A DNA stretch of 34,866 nucleotides from NCBI GenBank assembly GCA_947589615.1, contig CANQBU010000001.1:1-34866 (forward strand), given 5' to 3'. Position numbers and translations under genes: made by a program. Of this stretch, positions 3,158-31,709 are shown in pieces. Below the pieces are notes generated by a model, which worked only from the letters and a program-made list of their open reading frames with translations, had not been told where the DNA came from and did not search any database. The stretch comes from an uncultured Clostridia bacterium. GTDB lineage: Bacteria; Bacillota; Clostridia; Christensenellales; UBA1242. How positions within the stretch are numbered: position 1 is the first letter of the stretch; every line of letters begins with the position of its first letter.

Positions 3158-3284
3158 AATGTTTAAAACGAACTTGGTCTTGCTTGATATAAATATGTAT
3201 GAAAATGTGTAAAATAGTATGCAAGATAAAAATTTTAGTTATAAATAGTAATAAAAAAATAATATATGCATATATGAAAAGGTA

Positions 3285-3314: not shown

Positions 3315-3344
3315 ATATACGCCTATGGCTTAAAGGAAGAATTT

Positions 3345-4061: not shown

Positions 4062-4077
4062 CAAAAGAGGAAAAATT

Positions 4078-5682: not shown

Positions 5683-5684
5683 GA

Positions 5685-14800: not shown

Positions 14801-17027
14801 AATAACAAGGGAAGAGGGTGAAATGGTTGGCGTATATAATTATGACTTAACCGCCATTTCATCAAATCAAAACTATACTTTTATAAACGACAATCAGTCT
14901 TATTTTATTATAAATAAAAGACCTGTTACTGTAAAGATTAAAGATGCTACAAAAATTTACGGCGATGAAGACCCTGTATATCAATATGATGTTGAAAACG
15001 ATGTTGAGGGTGAAAAACTGTCGGTTGAAATTACCCGCGACTATAGTGAAGATGTCGGAGACCATACCCTTGTTTGCAAGATGAAAAATGATTCAAGATA
15101 TATAATTTCTTATGAGGAGGGGACATTAAAAATCACACCTTATTCAATTGCGGTAAAGGCCGATGATAAGGTTAAAGTTTATGGTGAAGAAGATCCTGAA
15201 TTTACAATTTCAATCACAGAGGGCGTTCTAAGAAACAATGACCGATTGGAAGATTTAATCCAAGGAAGAATTATTCGTGCTGAAGGGGAAAGTGCTGAAG
15301 ATTATGAAATTAAACTTGACAAATTATCGCTTGGGAAAAACTATGAGTTGAAACGTGAAAGCGGAAAACTTGTAATTTTGCCAAGACACCTTACAATCAC
15401 TGCTGACCCAATCACAAAATGCTACGGCGAGCAAGACCCAGAATTGACTTACAAAGTTTCAAGTGAAGGACTTGTATATAATGATAAAATCGAAGGAAGC
15501 CTTATAAGAGAGGCGGGAGAAGACGTCAGAGAATATAAAATTTTGCAAGGGGGAATTTCTTTGAGCAAGAACTATGAACTTGAATTCATTGAAGGGAAAT
15601 TTAATATTTTGAAGAAAGATATTCAAATTATTCCTACAACCCTTTCAAAGGAATATGGCGATGAAGATAAAACGATTGAATATAAGCTTGTCGGCGAACT
15701 TGTGGGAGAGGATACGCTGAGTGGAGAATTATACAGAGATGGCGTCGGCGAAAAGGAAGAAGTAGGGAAATATCTTATTTATTCTACACTCGACTCTCCA
15801 AATTATCAAATAAATATGGGCGAACATTACTTTACAATTTTACCGCGTGAAATTGTTGTAAAAGCAATCAGTTGTCAAATTTATTACGGCGGAGAGGAAC
15901 CACAACTTGACTATCAGATTGTATCGGGCACAGTTTTGGAAGGCGATGACTTCACGGGCGGACTTTCACGTCAGAAGGGCAATACAGCTGGCACTTATGA
16001 TATTATAAGTTCTCTTTCACTTGGCAGAAATTATACAATTCAATTCATCAAGGGCACAGTTACCATTCTGCCTCTTGACTTGACAATAAAAAGCCCAGAT
16101 TATCAAAAAATATATGGTCAGGAAGACCCAACTTTCACTTATGAAATTGTGGAAGGAAAGCTTATCAATAATGATAAACTTTATGGCACGATTATTCGTG
16201 AAAAAGGGGAAGATGTTGGAATTTACAATCTTGAAAAAGGAATTTACAATGCAAATTACAATATTACACTTTTACCAGCAAAATTTGAGATAATCAAAAA
16301 AGATGTATACATGATTTCATCTGTTTACAACAAGATTTATGATGGAACAACTGAAGCAAAACTTAAAAATCCATATGTATCTGGCATATTTGACAATGTA
16401 TATCTCGATTACGAACAAAATAACAGTGCAACTTTCCTATCTGCGGAAGTAGGTGAACATGTTGGAGTAAAGGTTCATGATGTTATGCTTGTAGGTGAAA
16501 AAGCAGGAAATTATAACTTAGTTTTGCCTGAATTGCTTTATGCCGATATTACCCTTCAAGATATTGCAAAAGAAGAGGTTTATCTTGCGGCAAAAGATCC
16601 TGTTTTATATTCAAGATATTCTCTTGAAATTGCAAGCGAAGATATTAGCAGTGAGGTTAAAGTAAAAAATCATAGTTTTGTTAAGAAATATAATATTTGG
16701 CTTGAAGACGGTGTTCGCAAGATAAACCCCGAAAGTCAATACACTATTAAAATTGAATTACCAAAGAAAATCTTTTCAAAATATAATATCTATGTTTATC
16801 AAAAAGATGAAGCGGGGAATTACAAAATGCTTGCCACTCAAAAAGATGCCAATAATGAAATAGTAATTTCCTCATATTCACTGGGCGAGTTTTATGTTGC
16901 GGTCGAAGATGAGTCATGGTTGGATATAGGGGCGATAGTTGCAATTTCTTTGATTGCGGTGACCTTCGTTGTGGCTGTGATATATACAGTTATAAAGCAA
17001 AAGAGAAAAAGAAAAATTTATGAATAA
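11859..17027 (+). CDS. Giant (1722 aa) MBG-repeat surface protein with signal peptide and C-terminal TM anchor
   Basis: N-terminal signal MTKIIKRTLILFALVALICLLFPMV. Eleven MBG-type units (K.YGDEDPE(F/L)TY......GD.L.G.L.R..GE.VG.Y.I..G.L...NY.I......F.I.PR), interspersed with four 'K(I/V)YD(G/K/Q)TT' units. C-terminal TM GAIVAISLIAVTFVVAVIYTVI followed by KQKRKRK. No LPXTG. SD AGGAGG. Confidence 0.9.
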   Translation: MTKIIKRTLILFALVALICLLFPMVYSHCASNAAVEGVSGNKIVLTGLIDGTYEHAFKDENKQSTLVNSKLDDIQDKYYSIVSSGKGTSSGWAEFKPTNDMLPFIEKGLLYAEASGEVTGKNGTKVTIQISSGDAFDQVSGDSGEINTGRIQVKSGQNIRFTFSTSSTNGKNNFTLSLPTIHIYTIINSITLNEESRIVYPGQIINISAFNDVTSLPKSEGNFMSFSKINHKIEIDVTSGGNYVKLLDTASPSLVILSNAPSGAVIKFRVYSKKTSYSSELIYSSNEASFTVNANQVAVSVQTDFDDHPFIDGDGLLYTPGKRFTLRVSQDPDFQFLGWYGLNDNNEEVLLSEADYLVSNAYGQVIYAKFIKSVTIKQIIVPDKVYDKTTAIPQEQISAIFDGVESKHDVKLLGSEFAFGDANAGDNKLIVPIEDDITAEDITLTGANAGLYTLKAQIFSASYSNSYGRILKRDALVIPENTQKQYGYTDPSFNYTVKNVLDGDTIVGDLGRLSGEEIGTYPFSQGNLGLRNPNYNVTIESSSYFEIIPRELSLENVIVEEKIYDQTTMAQISASLRNIFNNEDVYVSVEGEFVSPNAGNVEVLITDAKLFGEDKEHYTLVQYSQKLFGQINPSPIDVQAEEASAIYGDKIIFNYMVTGLYDGDELSGELAIKDKNVGKHEITEGTLGNSNYYIENFTSAICTITPREIQVYADKMSKVYGDEDDELTYATENMVEGDSLQGKLSRQDGEDVGVYEIEIGDLNNSNYIISFTKNEFIITERLIETVIEFLDKEYDGTNKVKYNVEYKNNVKNESFNLVLEASLSRQDCGTATVDYKIPSVDYSGTNYIFTYQFKNSQIQILRRQVNIFVDDISKTYGDGDPEFTYSVRNLIGNDTLDLTINREDGEVVGQYGYSMKGDYSESYPNYAITLVESYFKILPRQVKVEIGAFSKVFGDEDPEIKYEIIDNFCFNDTRESVVDGKITREEGEMVGVYNYDLTAISSNQNYTFINDNQSYFIINKRPVTVKIKDATKIYGDEDPVYQYDVENDVEGEKLSVEITRDYSEDVGDHTLVCKMKNDSRYIISYEEGTLKITPYSIAVKADDKVKVYGEEDPEFTISITEGVLRNNDRLEDLIQGRIIRAEGESAEDYEIKLDKLSLGKNYELKRESGKLVILPRHLTITADPITKCYGEQDPELTYKVSSEGLVYNDKIEGSLIREAGEDVREYKILQGGISLSKNYELEFIEGKFNILKKDIQIIPTTLSKEYGDEDKTIEYKLVGELVGEDTLSGELYRDGVGEKEEVGKYLIYSTLDSPNYQINMGEHYFTILPREIVVKAISCQIYYGGEEPQLDYQIVSGTVLEGDDFTGGLSRQKGNTAGTYDIISSLSLGRNYTIQFIKGTVTILPLDLTIKSPDYQKIYGQEDPTFTYEIVEGKLINNDKLYGTIIREKGEDVGIYNLEKGIYNANYNITLLPAKFEIIKKDVYMISSVYNKIYDGTTEAKLKNPYVSGIFDNVYLDYEQNNSATFLSAEVGEHVGVKVHDVMLVGEKAGNYNLVLPELLYADITLQDIAKEEVYLAAKDPVLYSRYSLEIASEDISSEVKVKNHSFVKKYNIWLEDGVRKINPESQYTIKIELPKKIFSKYNIYVYQKDEAGNYKMLATQKDANNEIVISSYSLGEFYVAVEDESWLDIGAIVAISLIAVTFVVAVIYTVIKQKRKRKIYE
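13290..16300 (+). repeat. Tandem MBG-domain coding repeats (11 units) inside the 11859 gene
   Basis: Units start at QKQYGYTDPSF, ASAIYGDKIIF, SKVYGDEDDEL, SKTYGDGDPEF, SKVFGDEDPEI, TKIYGDEDPVY, VKVYGEEDPEF, TKCYGEQDPEL, SKEYGDEDKTI, QIYYGGEEPQL and QKIYGQEDPTF. Boundaries approximate. Confidence 0.75.
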
Positions 17028-18549: not shown

Positions 18550-20586
18550 ATGAGTCAACTTGCATTGAAAAGTATTAATGAATTATTGGGAAAGAATTAT
18601 TTTATTCCCAGTTATCAAAGAGGTTATAGGTGGGAAAAACGTCAAGTTGTCGATTTGCTTGATGACTTGTATTCTTTCATAGGCGACAAAAATAAAGGAG
18701 AAAATTCCTTTTATTGCCTTCAACCAATAGTGGTCAAGGAATGTGATAAGGAAATAGCAAGAGAAACAATAAATTTAAGCAATCTAACTGATGATTGCAT
18801 AGGACCCTGGTTTGAGGTGATAGATGGTCAGCAGCGTCTTACCACATTATATTTGCTTTTTAAATATTTGATGGAAAGTAATGAATTTTGTGATATGGTA
18901 AGAGAGTATGGTGACCTTTATAAAATATTTTACCAGACGCAACATGGCTACAATGAATGTATAGAGAAGCCTCAAATTCCTCGAAGCGAAACTCCCAATG
19001 ATTTTTATATTACAAGGGCGTATGAGGCGATAAAAAATTGGTTTGAATCTTTCAGCGAAAGTAAACAAAAAGAGCATGTTAAATCCTTGTTTAAGACCTT
19101 TTTGTTAAACAATAGCGAATCGTCATCAATTATAAAATGCGGCTATGCACAGGTTATTTGGTATGAAGTGGATAAAGATGTAGACCCGATAAAAACTTTC
19201 ACTCGCCTAAACATAGGGAAAATTCCTCTAAGGAATGCTGAACTTATTAAGGCGTTGTTTTTGCAGAAAAGGGGTAAATCAGTTTCTTCTGATGTTCAAC
19301 AGATAAACATTGCAAAGGAATGGGACCAAATTGAAGCAAGTTTGCAAGAACCTCGATTTTGGGCATTTTTGAACAAGGATTTAAGGGAAATTCCAAATCA
19401 CATTGAGTTTATCTTTGATGTTATATTTGCAGTTGAGGGAAACAAGATAAAGGACGGGCTTAAAGATATAGAATATAAAAAGCTTAGAGAACAAAATCTC
19501 GGCTTAAGCGATAAAAAACTGATGCAAGAAGCAGAAAATTTGGCGGAGGGCAAGTTCAATGATATGTTTGGGACAGACGAGTTTGCATCTTTCAGATTTT
19601 TCAGCACAAAGTTTAAAAATCCAACGCGTCAAGATATTGAAAGCGAATGGAATATGGTGCGTGAATATTATGAGACCTTTTCGGAGTGGCAAAATAATCC
19701 GCTTTGGTATCACTATATTGGCTTTTTAATTTATTGCGATGAGCCAATTATAGATATCTTTAATCTTTACAAGGGCAAAACAAAAAATGAGTTTAAACAA
19801 AGTTTAATAAACAGAATAAAGGAGCGACTGGCGGTTTGGGTTAAAAGCTTAAATGACGGCTTATATGAACTTACAAATGAAAAAGGCGAGCCAGTAATTT
19901 ATAGTAATAAAAATAGAAAAAAATTAAGACAAATTTTGGTGTTATACAATATTGAATACATAATTCAAAAGAATGCACAATTAAAAAAGAGTTATGTTAT
20001 TTTCCCTTTCGACCTATTTAAGGAGCAGCAGTGGGATATAGAGCATGTTGACTCTTTTACAACAAACCCTCTTACTGATAAATGTCAACAAAAGGAATGG
20101 GTGGCTACAAGTTTAAATGGTCTTAAAGACTTTGGGATAAATTATACCGAGACAACGAGAATTTTAAAAGAAGAGAAGGAAAAACTTGAAAGCTTTTTGT
20201 CTGAGGATAATTCCTCAGTAAAAATTGAAGATGTAATGTGGATCTTGTCCAAATTGGCAGATGAATATCTGCCTACCGAAGAGGTCGAAAAGGATATCAA
20301 AAATTCAATCGGCAATCTTACACTACTTAATTCAAGTATAAACAGAAGTTACGGGAATGACATTTTCCCTTTAAAGAAAAGAACTATCACCCAAAAAGAT
20401 GCCGATGGAGAATTCATTCCTATTTGCACTAAAAATGTGTTTTTGAAAAATTTTATCGATGTTAACAATTCTCCAATTTCGTGGAGCGAACGGGATATGA
20501 AATGTTATCAGAAAAATATTATAGAGGTTATCTATAAGTTCTTAAAAAAGGATGGAGAAGGGGGAAATAATGGCAGAGAAATTTAG
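18550..20586 (+). CDS. DUF262 + DUF1524 protein (GmrSD / BrxU-like type IV restriction enzyme family)
   Basis: 678 aa. N-terminal DUF262 / ParB-like motifs IPSYQRGYRWEKRQVVDLLDDL and DGQQRLTTLYLL. C-terminal His-Me finger (DUF1524) motifs WDIEHVDS ... IGNLTLLNSSINRSYGNDIFPLKK. SD AAAGGAGAG. Confidence 0.85.
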   Translation: MSQLALKSINELLGKNYFIPSYQRGYRWEKRQVVDLLDDLYSFIGDKNKGENSFYCLQPIVVKECDKEIARETINLSNLTDDCIGPWFEVIDGQQRLTTLYLLFKYLMESNEFCDMVREYGDLYKIFYQTQHGYNECIEKPQIPRSETPNDFYITRAYEAIKNWFESFSESKQKEHVKSLFKTFLLNNSESSSIIKCGYAQVIWYEVDKDVDPIKTFTRLNIGKIPLRNAELIKALFLQKRGKSVSSDVQQINIAKEWDQIEASLQEPRFWAFLNKDLREIPNHIEFIFDVIFAVEGNKIKDGLKDIEYKKLREQNLGLSDKKLMQEAENLAEGKFNDMFGTDEFASFRFFSTKFKNPTRQDIESEWNMVREYYETFSEWQNNPLWYHYIGFLIYCDEPIIDIFNLYKGKTKNEFKQSLINRIKERLAVWVKSLNDGLYELTNEKGEPVIYSNKNRKKLRQILVLYNIEYIIQKNAQLKKSYVIFPFDLFKEQQWDIEHVDSFTTNPLTDKCQQKEWVATSLNGLKDFGINYTETTRILKEEKEKLESFLSEDNSSVKIEDVMWILSKLADEYLPTEEVEKDIKNSIGNLTLLNSSINRSYGNDIFPLKKRTITQKDADGEFIPICTKNVFLKNFIDVNNSPISWSERDMKCYQKNIIEVIYKFLKKDGEGGNNGREI

Positions 20587-22900
20587 TTTTAAGGATTTGC
20601 TTACACGGCCTATTCAATTGGTCGGCGGGGGAAGCGTAAAAATCGATAAAATCTCAATACCACTTTTGCAACGGGATTATGCTCAAGGCAGAATGTTCTT
20701 TAATGAAAAAACGGGAGAATACAAGTTTAATCTTGCCGGCGAGAAATTTATTGAAGAAATTTTTTCCACTCTTTTATCTTCCGATGACAAGGGGCTTGAA
20801 CTTGACTTTATTTATGGTTCAATTGATGAGGAAAGACCTGAGAAAGATGATGAAAATAAGGGGAATACAAATATTTTAAGCCCCCTTGATGGTCAGCAGC
20901 GCTTGACTACTCTTTTCCTCTTGTATTGGTTTATTGGCGGGGCAGAATTAGATGAAGAAGGCAAGTCAGATTTGTTGACCTCGCTTGAAAAATTTACATA
21001 TTTAACACGGACAAGCTCCAATGTCTTTTGTGCAAGCCTTGTGGAAGAATTGAAGCATTCAAACATTGATTTTAAAGGTGCAGAAGACATCAGTTTGCAA
21101 ATTAAAAACCTCTCATGGTTTCATGATGTATATACTTTAGATCCTACTATTGTGTCAATGCTTAATATGCTAAATAAAATACAGTCGCTGTACAGGGAAA
21201 GAGAATGCCAAAATGTATTTGGCAATTTGGAGAGAATGAAATTTTACATTCTGCCCCTAAAAAATTTTGAACTTACTGAAGAGCTTTATGTAAAAATGAA
21301 TGCTCGCGGCAAGCAATTGACGGATTTTGAAAATTTTAAAGCCGATTTACAAAAGTGGCTGCAATCACTAAACCTTCCAGAGAAGGAGTATCGAAAAAAT
21401 ACCACATTGCCTTATGACATGTATTTTATAAACAAAATGGATAATGAATGGCTACAGTGTCTATGGAAGGCAGGGAATGGAAGCGAAAATAGAAATTTCG
21501 ATTCTCTATTTTTAAAATTCTTCTATGATTATCTTTTAAATTATCATATTTTAGATTATAAAGATAATTATCAAAAACTGGACAAACAAAGTGACTATAA
21601 TGCTTTAAATGAAACTCGATATTTGGGCTTTTCAATCTTTGAAAAATTTTTAAAAAAAGGCTCGATGCTTGATAAGATTGAAATTGTGCTAGACAATATT
21701 TCCCAGCACTATGAAGATATTCTTAAGGCTTGCCAACCGGTGTGGAGCAGTGGAAAAATTCTATTTAATATATTTTCGCAAGATATGCAGTTAAAGGACA
21801 GGACAATATTTTGCGCTTTGGTTTTATATTTGACAAAGTATGGGTATGACGAAAAGGGCTTAAAAAAATGGATGCGTGTCGTATGGAATATTGCTGAAAA
21901 TGCCAACATCGATAGCGTTGCTGTAGTTGTCGGCGTAAACAAATTATTTGCAGAACTTGTGGAATATGCGGGCGATATTTATGCAAATCTTGCCGACGAA
22001 ACAAATATAATAACTTCAACTCAGGCAGAAGAGTTTGTTGCTGAAGAAAGATTAAAAGCCGGGCTTATAATGACTGACCCCGCTTGGGAGGAAAGTCTTA
22101 TCATCGCTGAAGGAAATTCCTTTTTTAGAGGCAATATAAGTTTTCTTTTGCCAGAAGAGGTAGAGGCGAAAGATATTGACAGGGGAGAATTTGAACACCG
22201 CTATGAAATGGCAAAAATATTCTTTGATGAAAAGGGTATCTGTGATGCTTATAGCAAGAATGGTCATCTTTTCCTCAGAGCGCTATTAAGCAGATATGAC
22301 GATTTGGGCAAAATAAAATATCATATCGCGGATAAAGATGAAAGAGAGCATTCTTTAAAACACATGCTTTCATCGGACAAAGTGGTGCGCAGGGCAATTT
22401 ACGAATGGTTTTCACTTGAGGACGAAGATAAAATTCATTCTAAACTTGTCGAAGAAGTGGCAAAGGCTTCTCCTATCAAAGATGTCTTTGACCGAAAACT
22501 CCACGAAGAACTTTACAAGTCAACAAATCTAATAAACTGGATGCAGGAGACTGGGGCAATAAGATATAAAGACGATTGCATTTCAAAGCCAAACAGCCCT
22601 ATTTATCAAATTTATGTTAGGGGTTACAGAAACGAGATAATTAAACGCTTAATTGAAGAGGGTTGGAAATGTAACAATCAGTGCAGCATAAATGAAGGGA
22701 AGGATAAAATTCCATACTTTTGGCCAAGCAGAGAAATTAATGTAATAAAAGAGGAAGCCGATAGGCAAATTATTTGCACATTTGATAGGGAAAATATCAG
22801 AATCGGCGAAGGTCAATATAATTATATAGATAATGTTAAAAGCAAAGATGATATCGATGCTTGCATCGAATGGATAAAAGAGCAAGAAAAGAAGTTGTAA
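20570..22900 (+). CDS. Second DUF262 domain protein with a long C-terminal region of unknown function
   Basis: I place the start at MAEKFSF (20570), with GAAGGGGGA upstream, overlapping the previous gene by 17 nt. Motifs IPLLQRDYAQG and DGQQRLTTLFLLYW. I could not recognise an E-H ... GNL-LL ... N nuclease motif with an intact His. Confidence 0.78.
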   Translation: MAEKFSFKDLLTRPIQLVGGGSVKIDKISIPLLQRDYAQGRMFFNEKTGEYKFNLAGEKFIEEIFSTLLSSDDKGLELDFIYGSIDEERPEKDDENKGNTNILSPLDGQQRLTTLFLLYWFIGGAELDEEGKSDLLTSLEKFTYLTRTSSNVFCASLVEELKHSNIDFKGAEDISLQIKNLSWFHDVYTLDPTIVSMLNMLNKIQSLYRERECQNVFGNLERMKFYILPLKNFELTEELYVKMNARGKQLTDFENFKADLQKWLQSLNLPEKEYRKNTTLPYDMYFINKMDNEWLQCLWKAGNGSENRNFDSLFLKFFYDYLLNYHILDYKDNYQKLDKQSDYNALNETRYLGFSIFEKFLKKGSMLDKIEIVLDNISQHYEDILKACQPVWSSGKILFNIFSQDMQLKDRTIFCALVLYLTKYGYDEKGLKKWMRVVWNIAENANIDSVAVVVGVNKLFAELVEYAGDIYANLADETNIITSTQAEEFVAEERLKAGLIMTDPAWEESLIIAEGNSFFRGNISFLLPEEVEAKDIDRGEFEHRYEMAKIFFDEKGICDAYSKNGHLFLRALLSRYDDLGKIKYHIADKDEREHSLKHMLSSDKVVRRAIYEWFSLEDEDKIHSKLVEEVAKASPIKDVFDRKLHEELYKSTNLINWMQETGAIRYKDDCISKPNSPIYQIYVRGYRNEIIKRLIEEGWKCNNQCSINEGKDKIPYFWPSREINVIKEEADRQIICTFDRENIRIGEGQYNYIDNVKSKDDIDACIEWIKEQEKKL

Positions 22901-23006: not shown

Positions 23007-23978
23007 TTAATTTTGAATATATAATTTTTCTTGTTTTAAGAGTGGATAAGATTTTAAACTGTCATTATTCAAATCTTCTTTATTCATATCCACTCCTACA
23101 ATTTGAGAGTTGTTGTAGGTGGTGTAATAGTAAATGCATTTGTCGGTGTTGCAGCATGAAGAATAAATGGTATGCTCAAAGCCCTTCTCAACCTTGCAAC
23201 AGCCTTTTTGTTGTTCGACAGAGGTTAAGATGTGGAAAAACTGACTGACGCTTTCCACTTCGCTGCTTCCTTGTAAAGAGTTTAATTTTGTAAATGCCGC
23301 CTTTACAAATCGCGATGCCGAAGACAGGTCTCCGGGCAACCCTATTCCGCCCATGCCTCGACTATATGGCGTAAGATTTAAGTTTTCGCAAAATCTGTTA
23401 ATTGGCTCATTGCGTGAAACATTCATGTAATTGCTAAGATGGATAAGATGATAGTCAAAAGTCGGGTTGTTTGTGAGAATTCCTACGGGGTTATCATAAA
23501 CTTTAAGCCCCTCGCTTAAAGGCTCAACTACGATGCAATCTTTTTTGTCGGCAATAATCCAGTGCAAAGGTGAGTGAGGTAATTCATTTGAAAAATCTTC
23601 ATCACAAATATTTAAGTTTGAAAGGATTTTCCGTGCCTCGCTTACATCTTTACATTTTGCCAAAATGTAAGGGATAAACTCAAATGGTGCGACATTATCT
23701 TTTGAGCGAATTTTCTTTGAATAAAAGGCGTTCTTGGGGAAATTTAATCCCGCGATGCTAAGCCCTTTTTCGTTTGTTGCGTCATAATAAAGAGGGTAGT
23801 CATTTTGCACAAATGCCATGCCAATCATCGCATAGTGCTTGTCACATTTACGCATATGACGAAAATCGAACGGGAAGTTTCGAGGGGTGATTGTCACCGT
23901 CTCATTGTATGAAAACTCATAGTCCAAATTTCGTCCAAAATAAAAATCTTTACTAAAAAAAGTTGCTGCTGTGCACAT
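23007..23978 (-). CDS. Choloylglycine hydrolase / bile salt hydrolase family (Ntn linear amide C-N hydrolase)
   Basis: 323 aa. Begins MCTAATF (nucleophile Cys2), followed by FGRNLDYEFSYNETVTITPRNFPF, which is typical of the BSH/PVA family. SD AAGGAG. Confidence 0.88.
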   Translation of the reverse strand: MCTAATFFSKDFYFGRNLDYEFSYNETVTITPRNFPFDFRHMRKCDKHYAMIGMAFVQNDYPLYYDATNEKGLSIAGLNFPKNAFYSKKIRSKDNVAPFEFIPYILAKCKDVSEARKILSNLNICDEDFSNELPHSPLHWIIADKKDCIVVEPLSEGLKVYDNPVGILTNNPTFDYHLIHLSNYMNVSRNEPINRFCENLNLTPYSRGMGGIGLPGDLSSASRFVKAAFTKLNSLQGSSEVESVSQFFHILTSVEQQKGCCKVEKGFEHTIYSSCCNTDKCIYYYTTYNNSQIVGVDMNKEDLNNDSLKSYPLLKQEKLYIQN

Positions 23979-24079
23979 AAAAAACTCCTTATATAAAATT
24001 ATAGCAAATCATTTTCAAAAATGAAAACAAATTGCAAACAAATCTACACTTGAAATTAAAAGTTGTCGGAACAAAGGGT

Positions 24080-24108
24080 TTAACAAAATTTGCAGTTTTA
24101 CATAAAAT
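24080..24108 (+). promoter_or_regulatory. Candidate promoter for the collagen-like gene
   Basis: TTAACA (24080-24085), 17-nt spacer, TAAAAT (24103-24108). It lies 22 nt upstream of the ATG at 24131 and just before the SD GAGGAG. Confidence 0.5.
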
Positions 24109-24130
24109 GTATTCTGTGAGGAGAAAACAA

Positions 24131-24715
24131 ATGATTTGCAATAACTTTCAAAACAACTGGCAATGTCAAAATCTTTATCCTTCTCCTACAGGTATATGTC
24201 CTCCTCAGACACCTACTGGAATAAGCATTGTAGGACCTACTGGACCTACAGGTGCAACTGGTGCGACAGGTGCTACAGGACCAACTGGTGCTACAGGAGC
24301 AACTGGTGCCACAGGTGCAACAGGGAGTTCTGCTTTAAGTTCGATTGCCTTTTTCACCGCGCCAAGCGTAACAAACGCAGAGCCAACACTTTTGCTTGAA
24401 AACTCATTTCCTATAGGTCAGACAGATATAACATTTGCTGGAGGGAATGGGGTTAATTTGACGACAGGCACATATATCATGAGATTTGGCTCGACTGTGA
24501 CAAGCACAAACGGGACTTTGCCTACCATATCCATTTCGGTTGATAATGTGGTCGAAAGCGGAACGATAAGAACGGGGGTTGGATTTGGCTCTGCAAATCT
24601 GACCGGTGACGCATTAATAACCATAAACACTCCTTCGCTTTTGACATTCAATGTAACGGTCGCTCCCGAACTAACTTACGATGAAAACTTTTTAATAATT
24701 ACAAAATTGGAATAA
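24131..24715 (+). CDS. Collagen-like triple-helix repeat protein (BclA-like) with a Cys-rich N-terminus and a beta-rich C-terminal domain
   Basis: I place the start at MICNNFQ (24131), with GTGAGGAGA upstream; the ORF-track TTG start at 24032 has no SD. Ten uninterrupted G-x-T triplets (GPTGPTGATGATGATGPTGATGATGATGAT), followed by a roughly 125-aa Thr/Ser/Gly/Asn-rich domain. Confidence 0.82.
   Translation: MICNNFQNNWQCQNLYPSPTGICPPQTPTGISIVGPTGPTGATGATGATGPTGATGATGATGATGSSALSSIAFFTAPSVTNAEPTLLLENSFPIGQTDITFAGGNGVNLTTGTYIMRFGSTVTSTNGTLPTISISVDNVVESGTIRTGVGFGSANLTGDALITINTPSLLTFNVTVAPELTYDENFLIITKLE
24233..24322 (+). repeat. GXT collagen-like coding microrepeat (10 triplets of 9 nt each)
   Basis: ggacctact ggacctaca ggtgcaact ggtgcgaca ggtgctaca ggaccaact ggtgctaca ggagcaact ggtgccaca ggtgcaaca. 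This stretch is locally GC-rich compared with its surroundings. Confidence 0.9.
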
Positions 24716-25163: not shown

Positions 25164-25194
25164 AAATATGTATGAGATGCTAGGAGGAATATTG

Positions 25195-26106
25195 ATGTTT
25201 CAAAAAAAGAAAAGGCAGGTAATTAAGTTTGAGCAAAACTTATGCCATGCAAAAGTTGATGACAATGATATTTTGTTTGTCCGCGTTTCCGACCAAATCA
25301 CAGATAAAGATGCGTTATTGGAAGTCCCATTAACCCATATTGCGTATGTGATAAAGGGTGGCGGATATGGCAAAGTGTATAAGAGCGGAACATATCCCGT
25401 TTTTGAGGATAACAAGGAAGTTAAAAATTGGCAACAGGGAATTTCTGTTGAAATAATTTACATGCCAAAAGACCCAAATGTTCCAATCAAATGGGGGACA
25501 AACGAAAAGATAAAGTATCGCGATGAGGTAAGCGGAAAGGTTGTGGGAGTTGCCGCGCATGGTGTATTCGATGTCTCAATTTCAAATCCCGAACAATTTT
25601 ACAGAAAGGTTGTTGGGGCAAGGCGGGAATTCAGCCTCAGAGAATTTCAAGACAGATTTAGTGCCAATGTTTTAAGTGAGTTCACCGCAATATTTTTTCA
25701 AACGATTGATGAACTTAAATTGACAAGTGACAAATTTGATGCAAATAAGAAAAGCATTCAGGAAAAAACGGGGAGACTGCTAAACAGAATATTTGAAGAT
25801 GAATGGGGAGTAAGTTTAAATAATTTCATCATTCAATACATAGGCGTTTCTGATATGGAGGTGGCAACTCGTGAAGAGGAAAAGCCTATTGAAAAACAAG
25901 AAGAGAAGCCAGTTCAAGCAAGATTTTGCCCATACTGCGGGGCACAGGTTCGTGAAGATGATGTCTTTTGCTCAAAGTGCGGAAAGAAATTGGAGAAAGA
26001 CAGCATAACTTGCCCATCATGTGGCAAAAGCAATAATATTTATGCCCAATTCTGCGTATATTGCGGCAAAAAAATAAGCGAGGGGAATCATGTGGAAAAA
26101 GAATAA
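25195..26106 (+). CDS. SPFH / Band_7_1 (YdjI-like) domain protein fused to a C-terminal double zinc ribbon
   Basis: I place the start at MFQKKKRQ (25195), with TAGGAGGA upstream. The N-terminal domain matches the Band_7_1 pattern (...VIKGGGYGKVYKSGTYPVF..., IKWGTNEKIKYRDEVSGKVVGVAAHGVFDVSISNPEQFYRKVVG). After an EEKP-rich linker come two C-x2-C...C-x2-C ribbons (CPYCG..CSKCG and CPSCG..CVYCG). Confidence 0.68.
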   Translation: MFQKKKRQVIKFEQNLCHAKVDDNDILFVRVSDQITDKDALLEVPLTHIAYVIKGGGYGKVYKSGTYPVFEDNKEVKNWQQGISVEIIYMPKDPNVPIKWGTNEKIKYRDEVSGKVVGVAAHGVFDVSISNPEQFYRKVVGARREFSLREFQDRFSANVLSEFTAIFFQTIDELKLTSDKFDANKKSIQEKTGRLLNRIFEDEWGVSLNNFIIQYIGVSDMEVATREEEKPIEKQEEKPVQARFCPYCGAQVREDDVFCSKCGKKLEKDSITCPSCGKSNNIYAQFCVYCGKKISEGNHVEKE

Positions 26107-26407
26107 TGACAAAGGTTTAAATGACAGAAACTTGATTGAAGAATGCGAAAAGGCAATAGACACTTTAATAATTCTCGGCGAGGCAGACGATGAACTTGTT
26201 TCAAATTTGCGAGTTATTAAAGAAAAAGTCAAATATCTTGTTCCAAGCAATGATGATAAGATTTACGAATTTGACAGGAGAATTAAAAATCTTATTGACG
26301 ACATGCGAATAGCGCTTGTCAAGGCGGACAGAGAGTCATTGAAGAAAATTAAACTGATTTTGGCGGATTTGAGGCTTGCAATAGTAGAGCGAAATTCAAG
26401 GATTTAA
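26090..26407 (+). CDS. Small (105 aa) predicted all-helical protein of unknown function
   Basis: The ATG overlaps the previous gene by 17 nt, with GAGGGGA upstream. Heptad-like charged/hydrophobic pattern. No family recognised. Confidence 0.55.
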   Translation: MWKKNNDKGLNDRNLIEECEKAIDTLIILGEADDELVSNLRVIKEKVKYLVPSNDDKIYEFDRRIKNLIDDMRIALVKADRESLKKIKLILADLRLAIVERNSRI

Positions 26408-26417
26408 AGGTGAAGTT

Positions 26418-27008
26418 ATGTGGTTTTTTAAAAGTAAATATGAAAAGTTATCTCGAGAAGAAGTGGTCGATGCGATTTGCAAACTTGAAAGTGAGACAAA
26501 AAGTATTGAAGAAGGGTTGACCTCAAAGCAGGAAGAGATAGACGAACTTATGGAAAAAGGGAGGACAGAAAAGAATAAAGAAGTCAAACTTTTCTATGCC
26601 AAAAAGATAAATGCACTTAAAGCGGAAAGAGAACAAAGTGTTCAAAGGGCATTGTATCTTATGTATAATGTTCAACTTATGAACAAACTTAAAACCTCAA
26701 TAGATGACAATCAATTCTTTAAAACCTCTTCAAAAATTCCTCTTAATAAGATGCTGGGCGACCAAAAAGCACTTGCAAAATTTTTAAACAAAACGCTGGG
26801 GACAAGGACAAAGGCGGAAGATGTGCTTACGTCAGCAGATGAAGTTTTCAAAACGCTTGAAGAGTCATACGATAAAAATGAAAGCATTTATGGGGTCAAT
26901 GACCAAGATGACGCACTGCTTTCTATGTTTGAGACAGAGGAGCAGTTAAACGAAGAAGAAGAGATGTTTACAGAAAGTGAACAAAAAGCCGGCAGAGGCG
27001 AAAATTAA
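26418..27008 (+). CDS. ESCRT-III / Snf7-like (PspA-Snf7 superfamily) coiled-coil protein, paralog 1
   Basis: 196 aa. The N-terminus MWFFKSKY resembles the MWSSLFGW membrane-insertion motif of yeast Snf7. The helical hairpin region aligns by eye with Snf7 (AICKLESE...KGRTEKNKEVKLFYAKKINALKAEREQ versus AIVRLREH...KGNKVMAKNALKKKKTIEQ). Acidic C-terminal tail. Fold assignment not verified. Confidence 0.55.
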   Translation: MWFFKSKYEKLSREEVVDAICKLESETKSIEEGLTSKQEEIDELMEKGRTEKNKEVKLFYAKKINALKAEREQSVQRALYLMYNVQLMNKLKTSIDDNQFFKTSSKIPLNKMLGDQKALAKFLNKTLGTRTKAEDVLTSADEVFKTLEESYDKNESIYGVNDQDDALLSMFETEEQLNEEEEMFTESEQKAGRGEN

Positions 27009-27022: not shown

Positions 27023-27580
27023 ATGTCAGCAAATAAAGAAATTGAAAAAAGAATGTTAATTAAGAGAACGATTTCATCAATGGAAAAACAAATCCAAAGA
27101 CTTGAAAATCAAAAGAAAACCTATATTGATGCGGGCAGACAGGCAAAGCAAAAAGGGTTAACAGCACAATATAACCTTGCTTTATCAGGGCTTAGAATGA
27201 CGATAAGCCAGCAGCGTCGAGTTTATGAAATGAAACTCAATTTTGAGATAACTTCGCAAATGAAGGATATGGCAAAGATGACCACCGATTTCCTTTCGGG
27301 AATGAGTTCTTTAAGTAAAGATATGATGAAACTCACAAAAGAGTCGGAGTTTAACAAAGTCCAGAAGCAATTCTCTGAAGCGATGGTTGGAATGGAAGTT
27401 CAAACTGAAAGAATGGAGGATTTCCTTGAAGAAACTCAGTCAACCTTTTCAAGCAACCTCAATAATGAAGAGGAGAGAAGCGAACTTGATGCCATGATGA
27501 CAAACGAGGCGGCAATCGGAACGGGAGTCGATGGCGAGATTGAAAAAGAACTTGAAGAACTTAAGAAAAAAATGTTTTAA
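27023..27580 (+). CDS. ESCRT-III / CHMP2(Vps2)-like coiled-coil protein, paralog 2, with a MIM1-like C-terminal helix
   Basis: 185 aa. By-eye parallels to CHMP2A: QIQRLENQKKT versus RERQKLETQEKK; AKQKGLTAQYNLALSGLRMTISQQRR versus AKQGQMDAVRIMAKDLVRTRR; QKQFSEAMVGMEVQTERMEDFLEE versus MMEFERQAEIMDMKEEMMNDAIDD; terminal EIEKELEELKKKMF versus DLEERLKNLRRD. SD AAAGGAG. Confidence 0.6.
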   Translation: MSANKEIEKRMLIKRTISSMEKQIQRLENQKKTYIDAGRQAKQKGLTAQYNLALSGLRMTISQQRRVYEMKLNFEITSQMKDMAKMTTDFLSGMSSLSKDMMKLTKESEFNKVQKQFSEAMVGMEVQTERMEDFLEETQSTFSSNLNNEEERSELDAMMTNEAAIGTGVDGEIEKELEELKKKMF

Positions 27581-27594: not shown

Positions 27595-28908
27595 ATGCCT
27601 GATATCAGTTTTATGAATGAAATGTATGAAATTTATTATCGCAAAGCAAAGGAGTGCTATGACAGAAAGGACTTAATGCTTGCAAAGCGATATTATTTTC
27701 TTGCAGCAGAACAAATGTTAAAAATGGCTCAAAACAGCGAGAAACAACTCCAAAAGGCAAGATTCAGTCGGGCTAAAAGCCTTATAGATATGGCGGAGAG
27801 TATTCAAGCGGGAAAGAGAAAAATAGCAAAAGATGAGCCACAGGAAGAAGAGGTCAGCGTTTCACAGAATGAAAAAATATCTCTTGAAGAGGCACTTTCA
27901 AGACTTGCAAGGCTTGAAGGGCTTGAAAAAGTAAAAAGACAGGTTTGCGATTGGATTGACCAAATCAAAGTTTTTCAGATGAGGAAGGAAAGAGGAATGT
28001 CCGTTCCTGACATTTCCTATCACATGGTGTTCACTGGTAATCCGGGGACTGGAAAAACCACGCTCGCAAGACTTATGGCACAAATCTATTGCGCGCTTGG
28101 GATTTTAAGCAATGGAAATCTTGTTGAAGTTGATAGAAGTGGACTGGTTGCGGGCTATATCGGTCAAACTGCCGTAAAAACAAAGGAAGCAATCAAAAAA
28201 GCATATGGCGGAGTGCTTTTTATTGATGAGGCATATTCGCTTGCAAACGGCAATACAAACGATTTTGGTCAGGAAGCAATCGAAGCAATTTTAAAGGAGA
28301 TGGAAGACAAGCGAGATGACCTTGTTGTAATTGTTGCGGGATATGACGAGCCGATGGAAAAGTTTATAGCTTCAAACCCAGGTTTAAAATCAAGATTTAA
28401 AAATTTCTTCCATTTTGATGATTATAATGGTGAGCAATTATTCAATATTTTCCAGAAATTCTGCGAAGAAAATGAATATAGCATTGACTATTCGGCGGCG
28501 GAAGTTTTGAAAGAATATTTCCAATATCTATATGACCACAGAGATAAAAATTTCGGCAATGCCAGAGATGTGAGAAATTTCTTTGAAAATGTTGTGACAA
28601 TTCAATCCAAGCGAGTTGTTAATCTGCCTCAGCCATCGAATGAGGATTTACAATTAATAAAAATCGAGGACTTGCCAAGCTATGTAGAAGAGTTATTGAG
28701 AAATCAAGAAAATGACTATGACAGTTACGATTTTGACGATGGCGAGCCAGAAGAGAATGATATTCCTGAAATTGAAACGCTAGATGGGATTGAAAACTCC
28801 GAAGAGAGGAGCGAGTTAGGAGAGAATGATGATAAAGAAGAAATAGACGAAAACAATAAAGAGACAAATAAGCAAACAGAGGACATTTCGACCAAAAACA
28901 AAAAATAA
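27595..28908 (+). CDS. AAA+ ATPase of the SpoVK/CbbX/EccA clade with a MIT-like (TPR-like helical) N-terminal domain and an acidic C-terminal tail
   Basis: 437 aa. Walker A GNPGTGKTT (28036-28062) and Walker B VLFIDEAYSL. Also VVIVAGYDEPMEKFIASNPGLKSRF. Near-collinear with B. subtilis SpoVK as I recall it (HMIFKGNPGTGKTTVAR...GGILFIDEAYSL...AGY...NPGLQSRF). N-terminus YRKAKECYDRKDLMLAKRYYFLAAEQMLKMAQ...RAKSLIDMAESIQ resembles the Vps4 MIT helices. Confidence 0.9.
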   Translation: MPDISFMNEMYEIYYRKAKECYDRKDLMLAKRYYFLAAEQMLKMAQNSEKQLQKARFSRAKSLIDMAESIQAGKRKIAKDEPQEEEVSVSQNEKISLEEALSRLARLEGLEKVKRQVCDWIDQIKVFQMRKERGMSVPDISYHMVFTGNPGTGKTTLARLMAQIYCALGILSNGNLVEVDRSGLVAGYIGQTAVKTKEAIKKAYGGVLFIDEAYSLANGNTNDFGQEAIEAILKEMEDKRDDLVVIVAGYDEPMEKFIASNPGLKSRFKNFFHFDDYNGEQLFNIFQKFCEENEYSIDYSAAEVLKEYFQYLYDHRDKNFGNARDVRNFFENVVTIQSKRVVNLPQPSNEDLQLIKIEDLPSYVEELLRNQENDYDSYDFDDGEPEENDIPEIETLDGIENSEERSELGENDDKEEIDENNKETNKQTEDISTKNKK

Positions 28909-28925: not shown

Positions 28926-31709
28926 ATGAAAGAAAGCACAAGATATTTGAGATGTAAAAACTGTGAAGGGGAAATGGATGTGCGTGAGGCAAAAAATGGG
29001 GTGCTAACCTGCCCATACTGCCGCACGATTGTTGTTTTGCCACGCAACGACTCATCTGATAAGACAAAAGCATATTTGAACAGCGGGAATCAAAACCTCG
29101 AATTGGGGCGATTTGATGAAGCTTACATAATGTTTGGAAAGGCGGTCGAAGAAAATGCGCAAGAGCCAGAAGGTTATTTCGGAATGGCACTTTCTAAGGC
29201 AAAAATCCAGTATTTAAAGGATTTGGTCAACAATAAACTTCAACCTATTTGCTTTGAGATAACTGAGAATAAATTCACCGATGATAAAAATTATCAAAAG
29301 GCGCTAGAACTTTCAAATCCCGATCAGAAGGAAATTTACGAGGAAAAAGGTTGTGCAATCGATAACATAAAAAGTAAATTTTTTCAGCTTAAAAGAAACA
29401 ATGTCGAGTATGACACATTTATATGCTGTAAGGTCACAAACGAAAATGGCGGAAACACGCAAGACAGCATGAATGCACTTAAAATTTATCATGAACTTAA
29501 AGATGCGGGATATAAGCCATTTTATTCGGAAGAGATTTTGAGGAATTTTGTGGGTGAAGACTATGAGGCAAATATTCTCTATGCCCTTTATTCAAGTGGA
29601 AGCATGCTTATGGTTTGCAGTGATGAGGAATATTTGCAAACAAAGTGGGTCAAAAATGAGTATACTCGCTTTATAACCTTACTCGAGCAAAAGGAAAAAC
29701 AAAGAGGAAGCATTGCATTTGTCTACAACGGCAAGCCTATTGAAGAATTTCCAGGCATTCAAGGCAAAGTTCAGGGGATAGATTTTTCAAAATTTAACGC
29801 ACTAAATCAAATAATTTCATTTGTAGAAAAATTTGCGGGGTCAAATAGATTTCTGGATTTTCAAAGAAAGGAATATGGCAAGAATAATGTTCAAAAGAAA
29901 AAGACTATAAAACGAGAAATTCAAAAACGCAATTTAAGTGTATCAGTAAGCGAAGCGGTCTCAATTTCAGACGAAGCAAAATTAAGGAATGCCCAAAAAC
30001 TGCTTGAGAAAGGGGATTTTGAAAATGTTTGCAATTTCTGCAATGAGATTTTAATGAGCAATAAATTCTACGGCAAAGCCTACTGGACATTGTTTTTGGC
30101 ACAAAATAAATGCAGAAGCAATGAGGAATTTATAAAGTCCACCACGCCAGTTGCAAACTTTTCTGACTTTGAGAAGGCAATCTCTGCAACAAGTGATAAA
30201 AGCGAGAGAGAAAAATATTATCAGTGCCTTAAAAATCGTATTCTTGAAAGTGGCGAGAAGGGGGATTTTGATGAATTTGTCGTTCTCCCTGAAGTAGAAG
30301 AGAAAGACCTGGCGGAAGCAATAGATAAAGTTTATGAAACTGCCAAAGAGCATGTCGATAAAGACCTTTTTGAAGCGGCAATTTCAGTGGAAAAGCACAC
30401 AAACAGATATGTAAGAATGAATCTTGGCTTTTTAAAACAATTGCCTATTGAGCAAAGAAAGCCATATTATGAGAATATTTTAAATGTCGATGCTGCAAAT
30501 CCCGAAGCACTATACGAAAATTTCAATATTGATAACAATCTATTAAGTGATGAGGCGGTTTTCGAATTTTACAGTGACAAGAAAAATCATGACACAATTG
30601 AAAACACATTATTTGCCTATGGCTTTAATAAATTTGCTTCCGATGACCTTAATAGAATTGTCCAAAATGGCGGCGACACAAAAAAGGGTTGCAGTATCTA
30701 TGACCTTATATTAAGTATGGTTCCAAAAGGCAAAAACAAAATTTTCGCCTACTATTTAAGCCAGGCAATAAGTTTCCTTTTTGCGGGAGAAAGGAAAAAA
30801 GGTCAATTTTATGTTGATTTCGAGCAACTTGAAAAATATAATAACGCTCTTATTTCAGTCGATCAATATAACTGCAATTGTTATGTAAATCGAATGCTTA
30901 TTGATAATAAGATAAAAAATCCGCTAGAACTTATGGACTGCCGGTCACTTTACGATTTTGCCGATTTCCGCCTTGCGGTCAACACATATGCCGAGCGTTA
31001 TCCAAATAAGACTAATGAATATATGCAATATGATGATGAACTCAAAGAGATAAAACAAATCCTTGCCACGCCAAAAATAAAACAGTATGTGCTTGACAAT
31101 TATGTCCCGAAAATGGAGTGGCTAAGTGGGAAGGCAAGGACGGACATTATTGAAATGCTGGACGGGAAAATGCAGAAGAGCGTAGGAAGTATACTCCGAA
31201 AAAATGAGTGCAAAGAATTAAAGGAACTTTGCAGTCTGCAAAAAGACGTCACAAAAGATGAAGACTTCGTTATGGCAAGAGATATTGCAAATGTGTTGTC
31301 AAGTCAAAAACTTCCTTCAAAAACACCTACAGAAACGGTTTCTTCACAGGCTGCCGCCCAAGCGGAAGAGGAGCCTGCACCTAAAGAAAGTGAGAGCCCA
31401 GATGAGGGGCAGACAAAAGATAAACAAGAAGTGCTAGAGCAAAAAGAGAGCGACAGGGAAATTAACGAAGTCACTCAAAATAATGAAGAGCAGAAAGAGG
31501 AAGAAAAAGAGGAAATAAGACTTGTAGATGAGTTAAATTCATTAAGCGAGCGCCAGCCTCAAGCGGCAAAAACAAATTATGAAACGCGAAGAAAAGAGGA
31601 AAGGCAGAGAATGAGAAAATTGACAATAAAAACAATATTATGGACCCTTTATGGCGTTGGACTCTTTTTCGCGATTGGAACACTTTTACTTTTTATTCTT
31701 TTAAAATAA
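28926..31709 (+). CDS. Tail-anchored multidomain protein: N-terminal zinc ribbon, TPR-like helices, TIR domain, long helical-repeat region, acidic low-complexity linker, C-terminal TM
   Basis: 927 aa. Zinc ribbon CKNC..x17..CPYC. TIR-like block at about residues 160-305 (nt 29403-29840): YDTFICCKV..., AGYKPFYSEEIL..G.DYEANILYALYSSGSMLMVCS...TKWVKNEYTRF, with the candidate catalytic Glu at 29658-29660. C-terminal TM ILWTLYGVGLFFAIGTLLLFILL (about 31632-31706). Confidence 0.78.
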   Translation: MKESTRYLRCKNCEGEMDVREAKNGVLTCPYCRTIVVLPRNDSSDKTKAYLNSGNQNLELGRFDEAYIMFGKAVEENAQEPEGYFGMALSKAKIQYLKDLVNNKLQPICFEITENKFTDDKNYQKALELSNPDQKEIYEEKGCAIDNIKSKFFQLKRNNVEYDTFICCKVTNENGGNTQDSMNALKIYHELKDAGYKPFYSEEILRNFVGEDYEANILYALYSSGSMLMVCSDEEYLQTKWVKNEYTRFITLLEQKEKQRGSIAFVYNGKPIEEFPGIQGKVQGIDFSKFNALNQIISFVEKFAGSNRFLDFQRKEYGKNNVQKKKTIKREIQKRNLSVSVSEAVSISDEAKLRNAQKLLEKGDFENVCNFCNEILMSNKFYGKAYWTLFLAQNKCRSNEEFIKSTTPVANFSDFEKAISATSDKSEREKYYQCLKNRILESGEKGDFDEFVVLPEVEEKDLAEAIDKVYETAKEHVDKDLFEAAISVEKHTNRYVRMNLGFLKQLPIEQRKPYYENILNVDAANPEALYENFNIDNNLLSDEAVFEFYSDKKNHDTIENTLFAYGFNKFASDDLNRIVQNGGDTKKGCSIYDLILSMVPKGKNKIFAYYLSQAISFLFAGERKKGQFYVDFEQLEKYNNALISVDQYNCNCYVNRMLIDNKIKNPLELMDCRSLYDFADFRLAVNTYAERYPNKTNEYMQYDDELKEIKQILATPKIKQYVLDNYVPKMEWLSGKARTDIIEMLDGKMQKSVGSILRKNECKELKELCSLQKDVTKDEDFVMARDIANVLSSQKLPSKTPTETVSSQAAAQAEEEPAPKESESPDEGQTKDKQEVLEQKESDREINEVTQNNEEQKEEEKEEIRLVDELNSLSERQPQAAKTNYETRRKEERQRMRKLTIKTILWTLYGVGLFFAIGTLLLFILLK

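Follow-up and report, generated by a model that had tools for sequence, protein, structure and literature searches.

A family of operons from uncultured gut Clostridia may bear on how the ESCRT-III-like polymers of bacteria are disassembled. One such operon lies on the 34,866-nucleotide stretch of DNA analysed here (the window; contig CANQBU010000001.1 of assembly GCA_947589615.1), and its fifth gene encodes a 437-residue ATPase in which a helical N-terminus resembling the MIT domain of Vps4 precedes a motor of the SpoVK/CbbX/EccA clade. A 2025 review states that Vps4-like ATPases appear to be absent from bacteria (PMC7619361), and a second account describes ESCRT components beyond PspA and Vipp1 as not identifiable there (PMC10936438). 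We consider it probable, with some reserve, that the 437-residue protein serves as ATPase to an ESCRT-III-like operon conserved among bacteria of this group, recognising the tail of its substrate as a MIT-interacting motif (MIM) and remodelling an ESCRT-III-like polymer. A role as an ESCRT-III recycler is the best reading of the protein because a MIT domain and a SpoVK-clade motor are joined in it, and because the adjacent gene encodes a protein of apparent ESCRT-III fold with a MIM1-like helix.

A SpoVK-clade motor behind a MIT-like domain

The ATPase gene and its parts are as follows.

27595-28908, forward strand: open reading frame of the ATPase, 437 residues, fifth of six operon genes
27595..27801, forward strand: MIT-like three-helix bundle, residues 1-69 (AlphaFold2, Foldseek, family profile, Pfam matches in relatives)
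27802..27879, forward strand: variable charged linker between MIT domain and AAA+ module, residues 70-95 (predicted local distance difference test score, pLDDT, low past residue 70; ratio of nonsynonymous to synonymous substitution rates, dN/dS, 0.24)
27880..28680, forward strand: SpoVK/CbbX/EccA-clade AAA+ module with AAA_lid_6, residues 96-362 (NCBIfam, Pfam, PDB, motifs)
28681..28908, forward strand: tail of acidic, low-complexity sequence, residues 363-437, with a net charge of -21, and the stop codon (probable linker remnant)

To judge from its sequence, the stretch from residue 96 to 362 is a SpoVK/CbbX/EccA-clade AAA+ module with its catalytic and pore-loop motifs intact, as the first-pass annotation of this DNA had held. 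The leading NCBIfam models for the ATPase are SpoVK (1.2e-85), EccA (1.2e-71) and CbbX (3.1e-71), with the score under the equivalog cut-off in all three cases (286.7 versus 422.95, 242 versus 466.65 and 240 versus 459.25, respectively); Pfam assigns AAA and AAA_lid_6 (the latter at 1.8e-17), and the nearest solved structures in a PDB search are those of CbbX (3zuh, 9e-55) and EccA1 (6e-49). The motifs that had been quoted in support of a SpoVK-like core (GNPGTGKTT, AGYDEPM and NPGLKSRF among them) can all be located in the protein: the first of these is the Walker A motif, at residues 148-156; the second falls within VVIVAGYDEPM (residues 244-254), in which A-G-Y forms the sensor-1 GY signature and is invariant in all 46 family members; and the third belongs to SNPGLKSRF (residues 260-268), which includes N261, K265 and R267. 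Walker B is VLFIDEAYSL (residues 207-216), the pore loop is AGYIGQT with Tyr188 (A-G-Y-[IV]-G across the family alignment), and the sensor-2 residue is Arg324 in GNAR, likewise invariant in the 46-member alignment. Taken across those 46 members, Walker A (GNPGTGKT), Walker B (LFIDEAY), the pore loop, the GY signature, Asn261, Arg267 and Arg324 are invariant or nearly so. Neither Vps4_C, sought with Pfam, nor the classical KW[MVF]GE pore loop that follows the MIT domain elsewhere was found in the window ATPase, the module being of the SpoVK clade.

In the published definition of the clade, its first arginine finger lies four residues past the Asn (PMC11513918), a position held here by Lys265 (window 28387-28389). 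The residue is Arg in 33 of the 46 members, Lys in eight, the window protein included, and Glu, Ser, Leu or Asp in the other five; the lysine is shared with the ATPases of three related loci (L052, L080 and L091) that carry a second AAA domain (D2).

The N-terminal domain is most plausibly a divergent MIT domain, and homology is supported though sub-threshold for the window sequence itself. Its AlphaFold2 model, built from an 8-sequence alignment, has a pLDDT of 89.6 and shows three helices, which span residues 4-23, 27-46 and 50-69. The likeness to the MIT domain of Vps4 that had been read from the helical pattern is upheld by the structural matches, with a sequence signal that agrees but stays sub-threshold, and the boundary first drawn at about 75 residues (27595-27820) was close, the bundle actually ending at residue 69 (nucleotide 27801). 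When this domain is compared with the PDB by Foldseek, MIT domains make up over half of the 50 best-ranked matches; they come from VPS4A, VPS4B, yeast Vps4, Sulfolobus CdvC, MITD1, katanin p60, calpain-7, spartin, NRBF2 and chitin synthase, with a TM-score of up to ~0.76 and a root-mean-square deviation (rmsd) down to 1.3 Å (for VPS4A, 1yxr, TM-score 0.73 and rmsd 1.3 Å).

At the level of sequence, a narrow profile of eight close orthologues gives only weak Sel1, TPR and PaREP1 matches, none of them MIT, in PDB and Pfam. An exhaustive HMMER search with the N-domain profile gathered 122 representative clusters, and a broad profile from a 76-sequence alignment matches the MIT domain of chitin synthase (2mpk) at E=5.1e-4 and those of CdvC and VPS4A/B at 0.1-3. 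Among those 76 members, Pfam MIT (PF04212) is the commonest match (29 members at E<=1, the best at 2.8e-4, sub-threshold), followed by TPR_8 and TPR_2 with 11 each; one relative, P0292, matches Pfam MIT at 3.7e-4, with 21 bits against a cut-off of 30. A D2-less orthologue (P0004, at 5511-6647 of locus L008) has a 7-residue deletion at the junction of MIT helix 1 and helix 2.

Members of the SpoVK clade are chaperones with one dedicated substrate each and variable N-terminal recruiting domains, and the main text of the survey that describes them lists TPR/beta-helix, beta-prism, SF1-helicase and SpoVK-NTD domains in that place, with MIT not among them (PMC11513918). The window protein would follow this pattern of conserved motor, variable recruiting domain and single dedicated substrate, and would give the SpoVK-EccA-CbbX clade a new N-terminal adaptor.

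E185 and the proposed mechanism

What might such an adaptor recruit? The presumed substrate or partner is encoded by the gene that precedes the ATPase.

27023..27580, forward strand: E185, ESCRT-III-fold protein of 185 residues (Pfam Snf7, AlphaFold2, Foldseek)
27536..27577, forward strand: MIM1-like C-terminal helix of E185, residues 172-185, EIEKELEELKKKMF (conserved past a variable acidic linker)

E185 is, as far as its predicted structure can be trusted, an ESCRT-III-fold protein with a MIM1-like C-terminal helix. Pfam Snf7 matches it at 5.4e-4 (20.1 bits, against a cut-off of 27.3 bits) and matches 10 of 25 orthologues. Its AlphaFold2 model (pLDDT 67) has helices at residues 2-44, 47-102, 107-146, 149-161 and 172-184, which is the ESCRT-III helix order, and the first 22 Foldseek matches in the PDB are all proteins of the ESCRT-III superfamily. 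CHMP1B is the best of the matches (3.3e-3), which further include CHMP2A/3, Asgard ESCRT-IIIB, Shrub, Snf7, Vipp1 and CdvB, with PspA ranked lower. A profile of E185 found no match among PDB sequences, and an alignment of diverse E185 proteins runs in register with yeast Snf7 (an approximate sequence) without reaching significance.

The MIM1 consensus is LxxRLxxL with lysines after it. E185 ends in ...GEIEKELEELKKKMF, where I173 is invariant and E176, L177, L180, K181, K182 and M184 are each kept in 90% or more of the 25 orthologues; the conserved amphipathic helix at its extreme C-terminus, EIEKELEELKKKM, has hydrophobic residues at 0/+4/+7 spacing and trailing lysines, as in MIM1. The E185 orthologues of operons with a Vps4-type ATPase keep a MIM-like tail (DAELDRQMEELKKKI, DAEIDAKINEIKRTL), and the tail of the E185-like protein of locus L049, EELDRRLAELEKK, fits LxxRLxxL with lysines. 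The first-pass suggestion that the upstream gene ends in a MIM-like helix is thus borne out by a C-terminus conserved in operons of both the SpoVK and the Vps4 type.

A scan of one genome per species returned 34 loci with the MIT alignment and 78 loci with the E185 alignment, to which metagenome contigs were added. All of the hosts are uncultured gut Clostridia, mostly labelled Christensenella or Christensenellaceae, with Candidatus Coproplasma, Stercoripulliclostridium and others among the further labels, and the closest match is a metagenome-assembled genome (MAG) from rabbit gut, at ~90% protein identity. Synteny is strict over the 78 species-representative genome loci and the metagenome contigs. 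In most loci E185 is the gene directly upstream of the ATPase, and its MIM1-like tail is conserved wherever the MIT-ATPase occurs. Two reduced loci (L092 and L093, ~5470-9709) consist of a gene resembling the zinc-ribbon TIR genes of these operons, an E185 orthologue with a MIM-like tail and a long trypsin-like protein; an adjacent ATPase, SPFH gene and E196 are all absent from them.

The mechanism we propose would begin with docking of the ATPase MIT domain on the MIM1-like C-terminal helix of E185. The SpoVK/CbbX/EccA-clade ring would then engage the docked E185 by its tail through the Tyr188-Ile-Gly pore loop, and would pull out or remodel subunits of a membrane-associated polymer, which the SPFH/zinc-ribbon protein encoded by the first operon gene probably organises at the membrane. 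CbbX offers a precedent for the second step, since an equivalent pore-loop tyrosine serves it to draw the large subunit of Rubisco (RbcL), by the C-terminal tail, through its pore. The precedent for the last is B. subtilis YdjI, of the same domain family as the SPFH protein, which brings PspA to the membrane (PMC8581546). The overall task would be that of Vps4 in archaea and eukaryotes, carried out by a different motor.

Would the ring instead act mainly on some other product of the operon? It might reset or activate the TIR or the SPFH protein, in the manner of CbbX with Rubisco or of Trip13 with HORMA proteins in CBASS (cyclic-oligonucleotide-based antiphage signalling), with the N-terminal bundle serving as a generic TPR-like adaptor. 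SpoVK-clade ATPases are indeed dedicated activases of single enzymes (PMC11513918), a TIR gene lies directly downstream of the ATPase gene, PADLOC finds in the ATPase a similarity, only of a generic AAA kind, to the AAA modules of IetA and TRIP13 (5e-10 to 1e-3), and the narrow N-domain profile points to Sel1/TPR-type helices and not to MIT. We nonetheless think this alternative unlikely, for it is E185 that keeps its MIM1-like tail, mostly from a position just upstream, wherever the MIT-ATPase is found, whereas TIR genes, though present in most related loci, vary in number (0-3 copies) and position and are absent from seven (L047, L049, L065, L067, L082, L083 and L089). The Vps4-type relatives that stand in the same operon likewise indicate an ESCRT-III substrate.

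A motor swap and the probable loss of a second ring

The slot that the ATPase occupies holds four architectures among the related loci, with the MIT domain common to all of them.

MIT, SpoVK-like module, linker and classical AAA (D2): 38 loci with a complete ATPase
MIT and a single Vps4-like AAA, 370-530 residues: 27 loci with a complete ATPase
MIT, Vps4-like AAA and D2: L109 (and the metagenome locus L045)
MIT and SpoVK-like module alone: the window clade and L053

Vps4-like enzymes fill the slot in one third of the ~80 species-level genomes, and more distant ATPases of the MIT-SpoVK-only kind occur in L046 and L047. The modules of the Vps4-like enzymes have the pore loop SKW[VF]G[ED][SA]E (SKWVGESEK, for example), the KW[MVF]GE feature being present in the L041, L043 and L045 ATPases, and several of them carry Vps4_C above the Pfam cut-off; the D2 of P0090 has it at 24.6 bits against a cut-off of 21.3, and it is present also in P0274, P0292 and P0271. 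Single-domain scores against PDB entries of the Vps4 and the Cdc48 lineage do not decide the descent of D2 (150 versus 148 bits) or of the Vps4-type AAA (in P0292, 209 versus 201 bits).

These relatives bear directly on how the window protein arose. It had been proposed at first pass that MIT and AAA+ were assembled here independently of Vps4, from a different AAA+ clade, and this does not hold: the same MIT domain heads the Vps4-architecture ATPases of orthologous operons (with profile E-values down to 1e-20) and the tandem forms likewise. On the high-GC metagenome contig L049, an E185-like gene is followed by adjacent genes for a MIT-Vps4-like protein (2360-3553, 397 residues) and a MIT-SpoVK-like protein (3643-4749, 368 residues), whose two MIT domains are ~65% identical by eye. 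Because the same MIT domain is found on Vps4-like and on SpoVK-like ATPases, side by side in L049, it appears to have passed from one motor to another within a single system, by copying or by exchange. The graft itself is real, then, so far as sequence comparison can tell, and is a duplication or swap within an existing Vps4-like system. The evidence supports ancestral operon ATPases that were MIT-bearing and Vps4-like, after which a SpoVK-like motor gained the MIT domain, through duplication or exchange, and was fused upstream of a classical AAA domain.

The window protein probably descends from this tandem form by loss of D2. In a neighbour-joining tree of the MIT and first-ring (D1) region, a single tree drawn without bootstrap support, the window clade (window, L050 and L051) is sister to the tandem ATPase of L052, deep within the tandem clade, and L053 represents a separate, independent loss of D2. 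In the D2 of the tandem ATPases (P0090, at 10001-12019 of L007, for example) both the Walker motifs and the arginine fingers are intact, and the domain's end resembles Vps4_C. Its pore loop, LN[TQ]G[IA]GN, is without the aromatic residue (LNTGIGNTEK, compared with SKWMGESEK in Vps4), while D1 keeps its Tyr, which is consistent with D1 being the substrate-engaging ring, a role that may have made D2 dispensable. Homology between the window protein and the long forms ends after ...EDLP (residue 362), and tblastn found no D2 remnant in the window.

What follows residue 362 is most simply taken as a relaxed, near-neutral remnant of the D1-D2 linker with no distinct functional feature. The long acidic tail that the first-pass annotation singled out as unexplained does exist, and its status as a feature in its own right does not survive: the tails of D2-less orthologues range from ~15 to 75 residues and differ in sequence, a search for tandem repeats in the acidic tail found none, and its dN/dS between the window and the ~90%-identical relative is 0.78. 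The corresponding ratios are 0.023 for the MIT domain, 0.030 for the AAA module and 0.02-0.07 for the other five operon genes; dS is near saturation, so that all of these values are rough, yet those for MIT, AAA and operon genes are clearly far below 1. Across the D2-less clade the ratios are 0.02-0.05 for MIT and AAA and 0.02-0.07 for all six genes, a purifying selection which indicates that the single-ring protein is kept by selection.

The same values speak to the possibility that the single-ring form is a decaying, non-working remnant of the tandem ATPase. Such decay could be read from the disappearance of both D2 and the trypsin-like protease gene (usual in related operons) from the window clade, from Lys265, from the MIT deletion in P0004 and from the near-neutral tail. 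We hold it to be very improbable in view of the low dN/dS values and of open reading frames that are intact in at least three genomes; Lys265, moreover, occurs in D2-bearing ATPases as well, Arg267 is invariant, and L046 and L047 have MIT-SpoVK-only ATPases of their own. Scarcely credible, finally, is a SpoVK-like chaperone of the usual sort, acting in sporulation or stress and set beside coiled-coil genes by chance. Stage V sporulation protein K does head the NCBIfam models, the host is one of the Clostridia and one related locus adjoins spo0A; yet the SpoVK score is far under its cut-off, the N-domain of SpoVK is made of beta-strands and is not a helical bundle (PMC11513918), and the neighbourhood is kept in ~80 species-level genomes with Vps4-like enzymes in the slot in one third.

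How does the recycler that we favour compare with known systems? With Vps4 and CdvC it shares the order of N-terminal MIT bundle, linker and AAA and the proximity to a gene for an ESCRT-III-fold protein with a MIM1-like helix, and its sister operons in Clostridia have the full Vps4 architecture (MIT, classical AAA with SKW[VF]GE, Vps4_C). It differs from them in its motor, which has AAA_lid_6, the GY sensor-1 and the YIG pore loop of the SpoVK clade in place of a classical/meiotic-clade AAA, in being without Vps4_C or beta-domain, and in its bacterial host; Cdv and ESCRT loci, for their part, are without SPFH, TIR and trypsin-like genes (the last being found in the window's relatives). CbbX, EccA and SpoVK are the nearest kin of residues 96-362 in sequence and structure and share the clade signatures; the differences are the scores below every equivalog cut-off, the Lys at the first arginine-finger position and the fusion of most close relatives to D2.

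Two bacterial arrangements around PspA are also relevant. The B. subtilis pspA-ydjGHI operon, too, is from a Firmicute and encodes a cytoplasmic SPFH (Band_7_1) zinc-ribbon protein with a protein of the ESCRT-III superfamily. The window operon is unlike it in having TIR genes and no YdjG or YdjH homologues; E185 is nearer to Snf7/CHMP than to PspA (Pfam Snf7, and Foldseek matches to CHMP1B and CHMP2A/3 first), and a MIT-AAA ATPase, reportedly missing from PspA systems (PMC7619361), is encoded beside it. Ravi, Aravind and co-workers describe an Inactive-Classical-AAA and a Classical-AAA next to PspA, as in AEY64320.1, and propose ATP-dependent remodelling (PMC11237479, Text S2.2). The likeness there is that a bacterial ESCRT-III-superfamily gene adjoins an ATPase with two AAA domains; those are both classical AAAs, however, the N-terminal copy is inactive and MIT is not reported, whereas in the window family D1 is of the SpoVK clade with intact Walker motifs, MIT stands in front and the partner is Snf7-like. 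The same survey of phage-shock-protein systems records transferred Vps4-like genes without Snf7 (PMC11237479).

The machine would be an ESCRT-III/MIT-AAA system, here in bacteria and with a swapped motor. We found no description of the operon in the literature searched, which leaves most subscription journals outside it, and such an absence is no proof of novelty. The importance lies mainly in the operon family and less in the window protein alone. The family offers Snf7-like subunits with MIM-like tails together with MIT-bearing ATPases, Vps4 architecture included, and a natural motor-swap series (Vps4-like, Vps4-like with D2, SpoVK-like with D2, SpoVK-like alone), of which the window protein, a single SpoVK/CbbX-type ring, is the minimal end. 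Whether MIT-MIM recognition is separable from the type of AAA+ motor is made testable by that series.

The rest of the operon and the question of immunity

In the order SPFH, 105-residue protein, E196, E185, ATPase and 927-residue TIR protein, the six genes are spaced by -17 to +17 nucleotides. Those not yet described are these.

25168..26106, forward strand: SPFH (Band_7_1) protein with two C-terminal zinc ribbons, first operon gene (Band_7_1 1.4e-15, Zn_Ribbon_1, DZR)
26090..26407, forward strand: small 105-residue protein (17-nucleotide overlap with the SPFH gene, 26090-26106)
26418..27008, forward strand: E196, conserved protein of 196 residues with the motif IYG..DDALL.MFETEE near its C-terminus (orthologue alignment)
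28926..31709, forward strand: TIR protein of 927 residues, last operon gene (Pfam TIR_2 1.3e-9)

Of the five downstream genes, four have a ribosome-binding site in front of them; the 105-residue gene starts within the SPFH gene, an overlap that suggests translational coupling. A promoter and terminator scan, otherwise uninformative, showed no forward-strand terminator inside the operon. The SPFH gene is found in most complete related loci. The 105-residue protein has no family match in Pfam or NCBIfam; its orthologue is present in most related loci, the Vps4-type operon L041 included.

E196 always adjoins E185 in related loci, and the first-pass annotation had counted both as Snf7-like. For E185 that assumption is supported by the predicted fold and the Foldseek matches. 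For E196 nothing significant was returned from PDB, from Pfam, or by hhalign against E185 and against the approximate sequence of yeast Snf7, and because it has no detectable similarity to either we do not call it ESCRT-III-like. The protein begins with MWFFKSK (window 26418-26440) and orthologues of E185 with MGLFKSK (L041 from 6378, L045 from 6353, L049 from 1769); both are reminiscent of the membrane motif, short and hydrophobic, at the N-terminus of ESCRT-III proteins in eukaryotes.

In the TIR protein a zinc ribbon at the N-terminus is followed by TPR and TIR_2; past these come a long helical stretch and, at the C-terminus, a hydrophobic segment that we read as a membrane anchor. A WVKNE[YW] motif is conserved among its homologues, and from what is known of TIR NADases we take its Glu to be the likely catalytic residue, as a prediction. 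Past their membrane segments the homologues carry Glug, LRR_5 or Flg_new modules, a layout that may be likened to an inverted Toll-like receptor and that is polymorphic as in conflict systems.

The association with TIR membrane proteins gives a hint that membrane remodelling and bacterial immunity may be linked, and together with the trypsin-like protease of most related operons it would allow the speculation that membrane remodelling or repair is coupled here to a conflict or immune function. A bolder form, which we put forward only tentatively and regard as doubtful, is that gut Clostridia hold a true counterpart of ESCRT-III/Vps4, with Snf7-type subunits recognised by MIM-MIT contacts, which is wired to SPFH, TIR and protease as a membrane-damage-sensing or abortive-infection immunity and in which MIT has moved between unrelated AAA+ motors. 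Were this true, a Vps4-clade motor would not be required for ESCRT-III recycling.

Against the proposal as a whole, both the recycler and its immune extension, a number of points must be set. All Foldseek E-values for the N-domain are above 0.1, S20 and designed bundles are also among its matches, a three-helix bundle is a simple fold, and the window N-domain gave no match to Pfam MIT (PF04212). The E185 model is of only moderate confidence, its Snf7 match is below the cut-off, and a Glu stands in its motif where the MIM1 consensus has Arg. The competence of the ATPase is not fully certain, because the first arginine-finger position is Lys265 and 13 of the 46 family members have a residue other than Arg there. 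With D2 and the trypsin gene lost, the window clade may have come to use the system differently. The immune reading, which is speculative, rests only on TIR, on protease content and on two GmrSD genes, and PADLOC-DB v2 recognised no known defence system in the operon; for the five proteins other than the ATPase it returned nothing significant, with two marginal matches at E ~0.004-0.007.

The two GmrSD_N genes (type IV restriction-like, DUF262), at 18550-20586 and 20552-22900, are adjacent to each other just upstream of the operon region, and the pair is also present in the closest MAG (L005); it suggests a defence-island context. Further upstream in the window are two giant open reading frames, probably surface adhesins, one of 2053 residues (5685-11846; four Big_2 domains and a hyaluronate-lyase N-beta domain) and one of 1722 residues (11859-17027; eleven MBG_2 and three YDG domains). 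A collagen-like G-x-T repeat protein (24032-24715) adjoins a choloylglycine (bile-salt) hydrolase on the reverse strand (23007-23978), an enzyme that is consistent with a gut organism.

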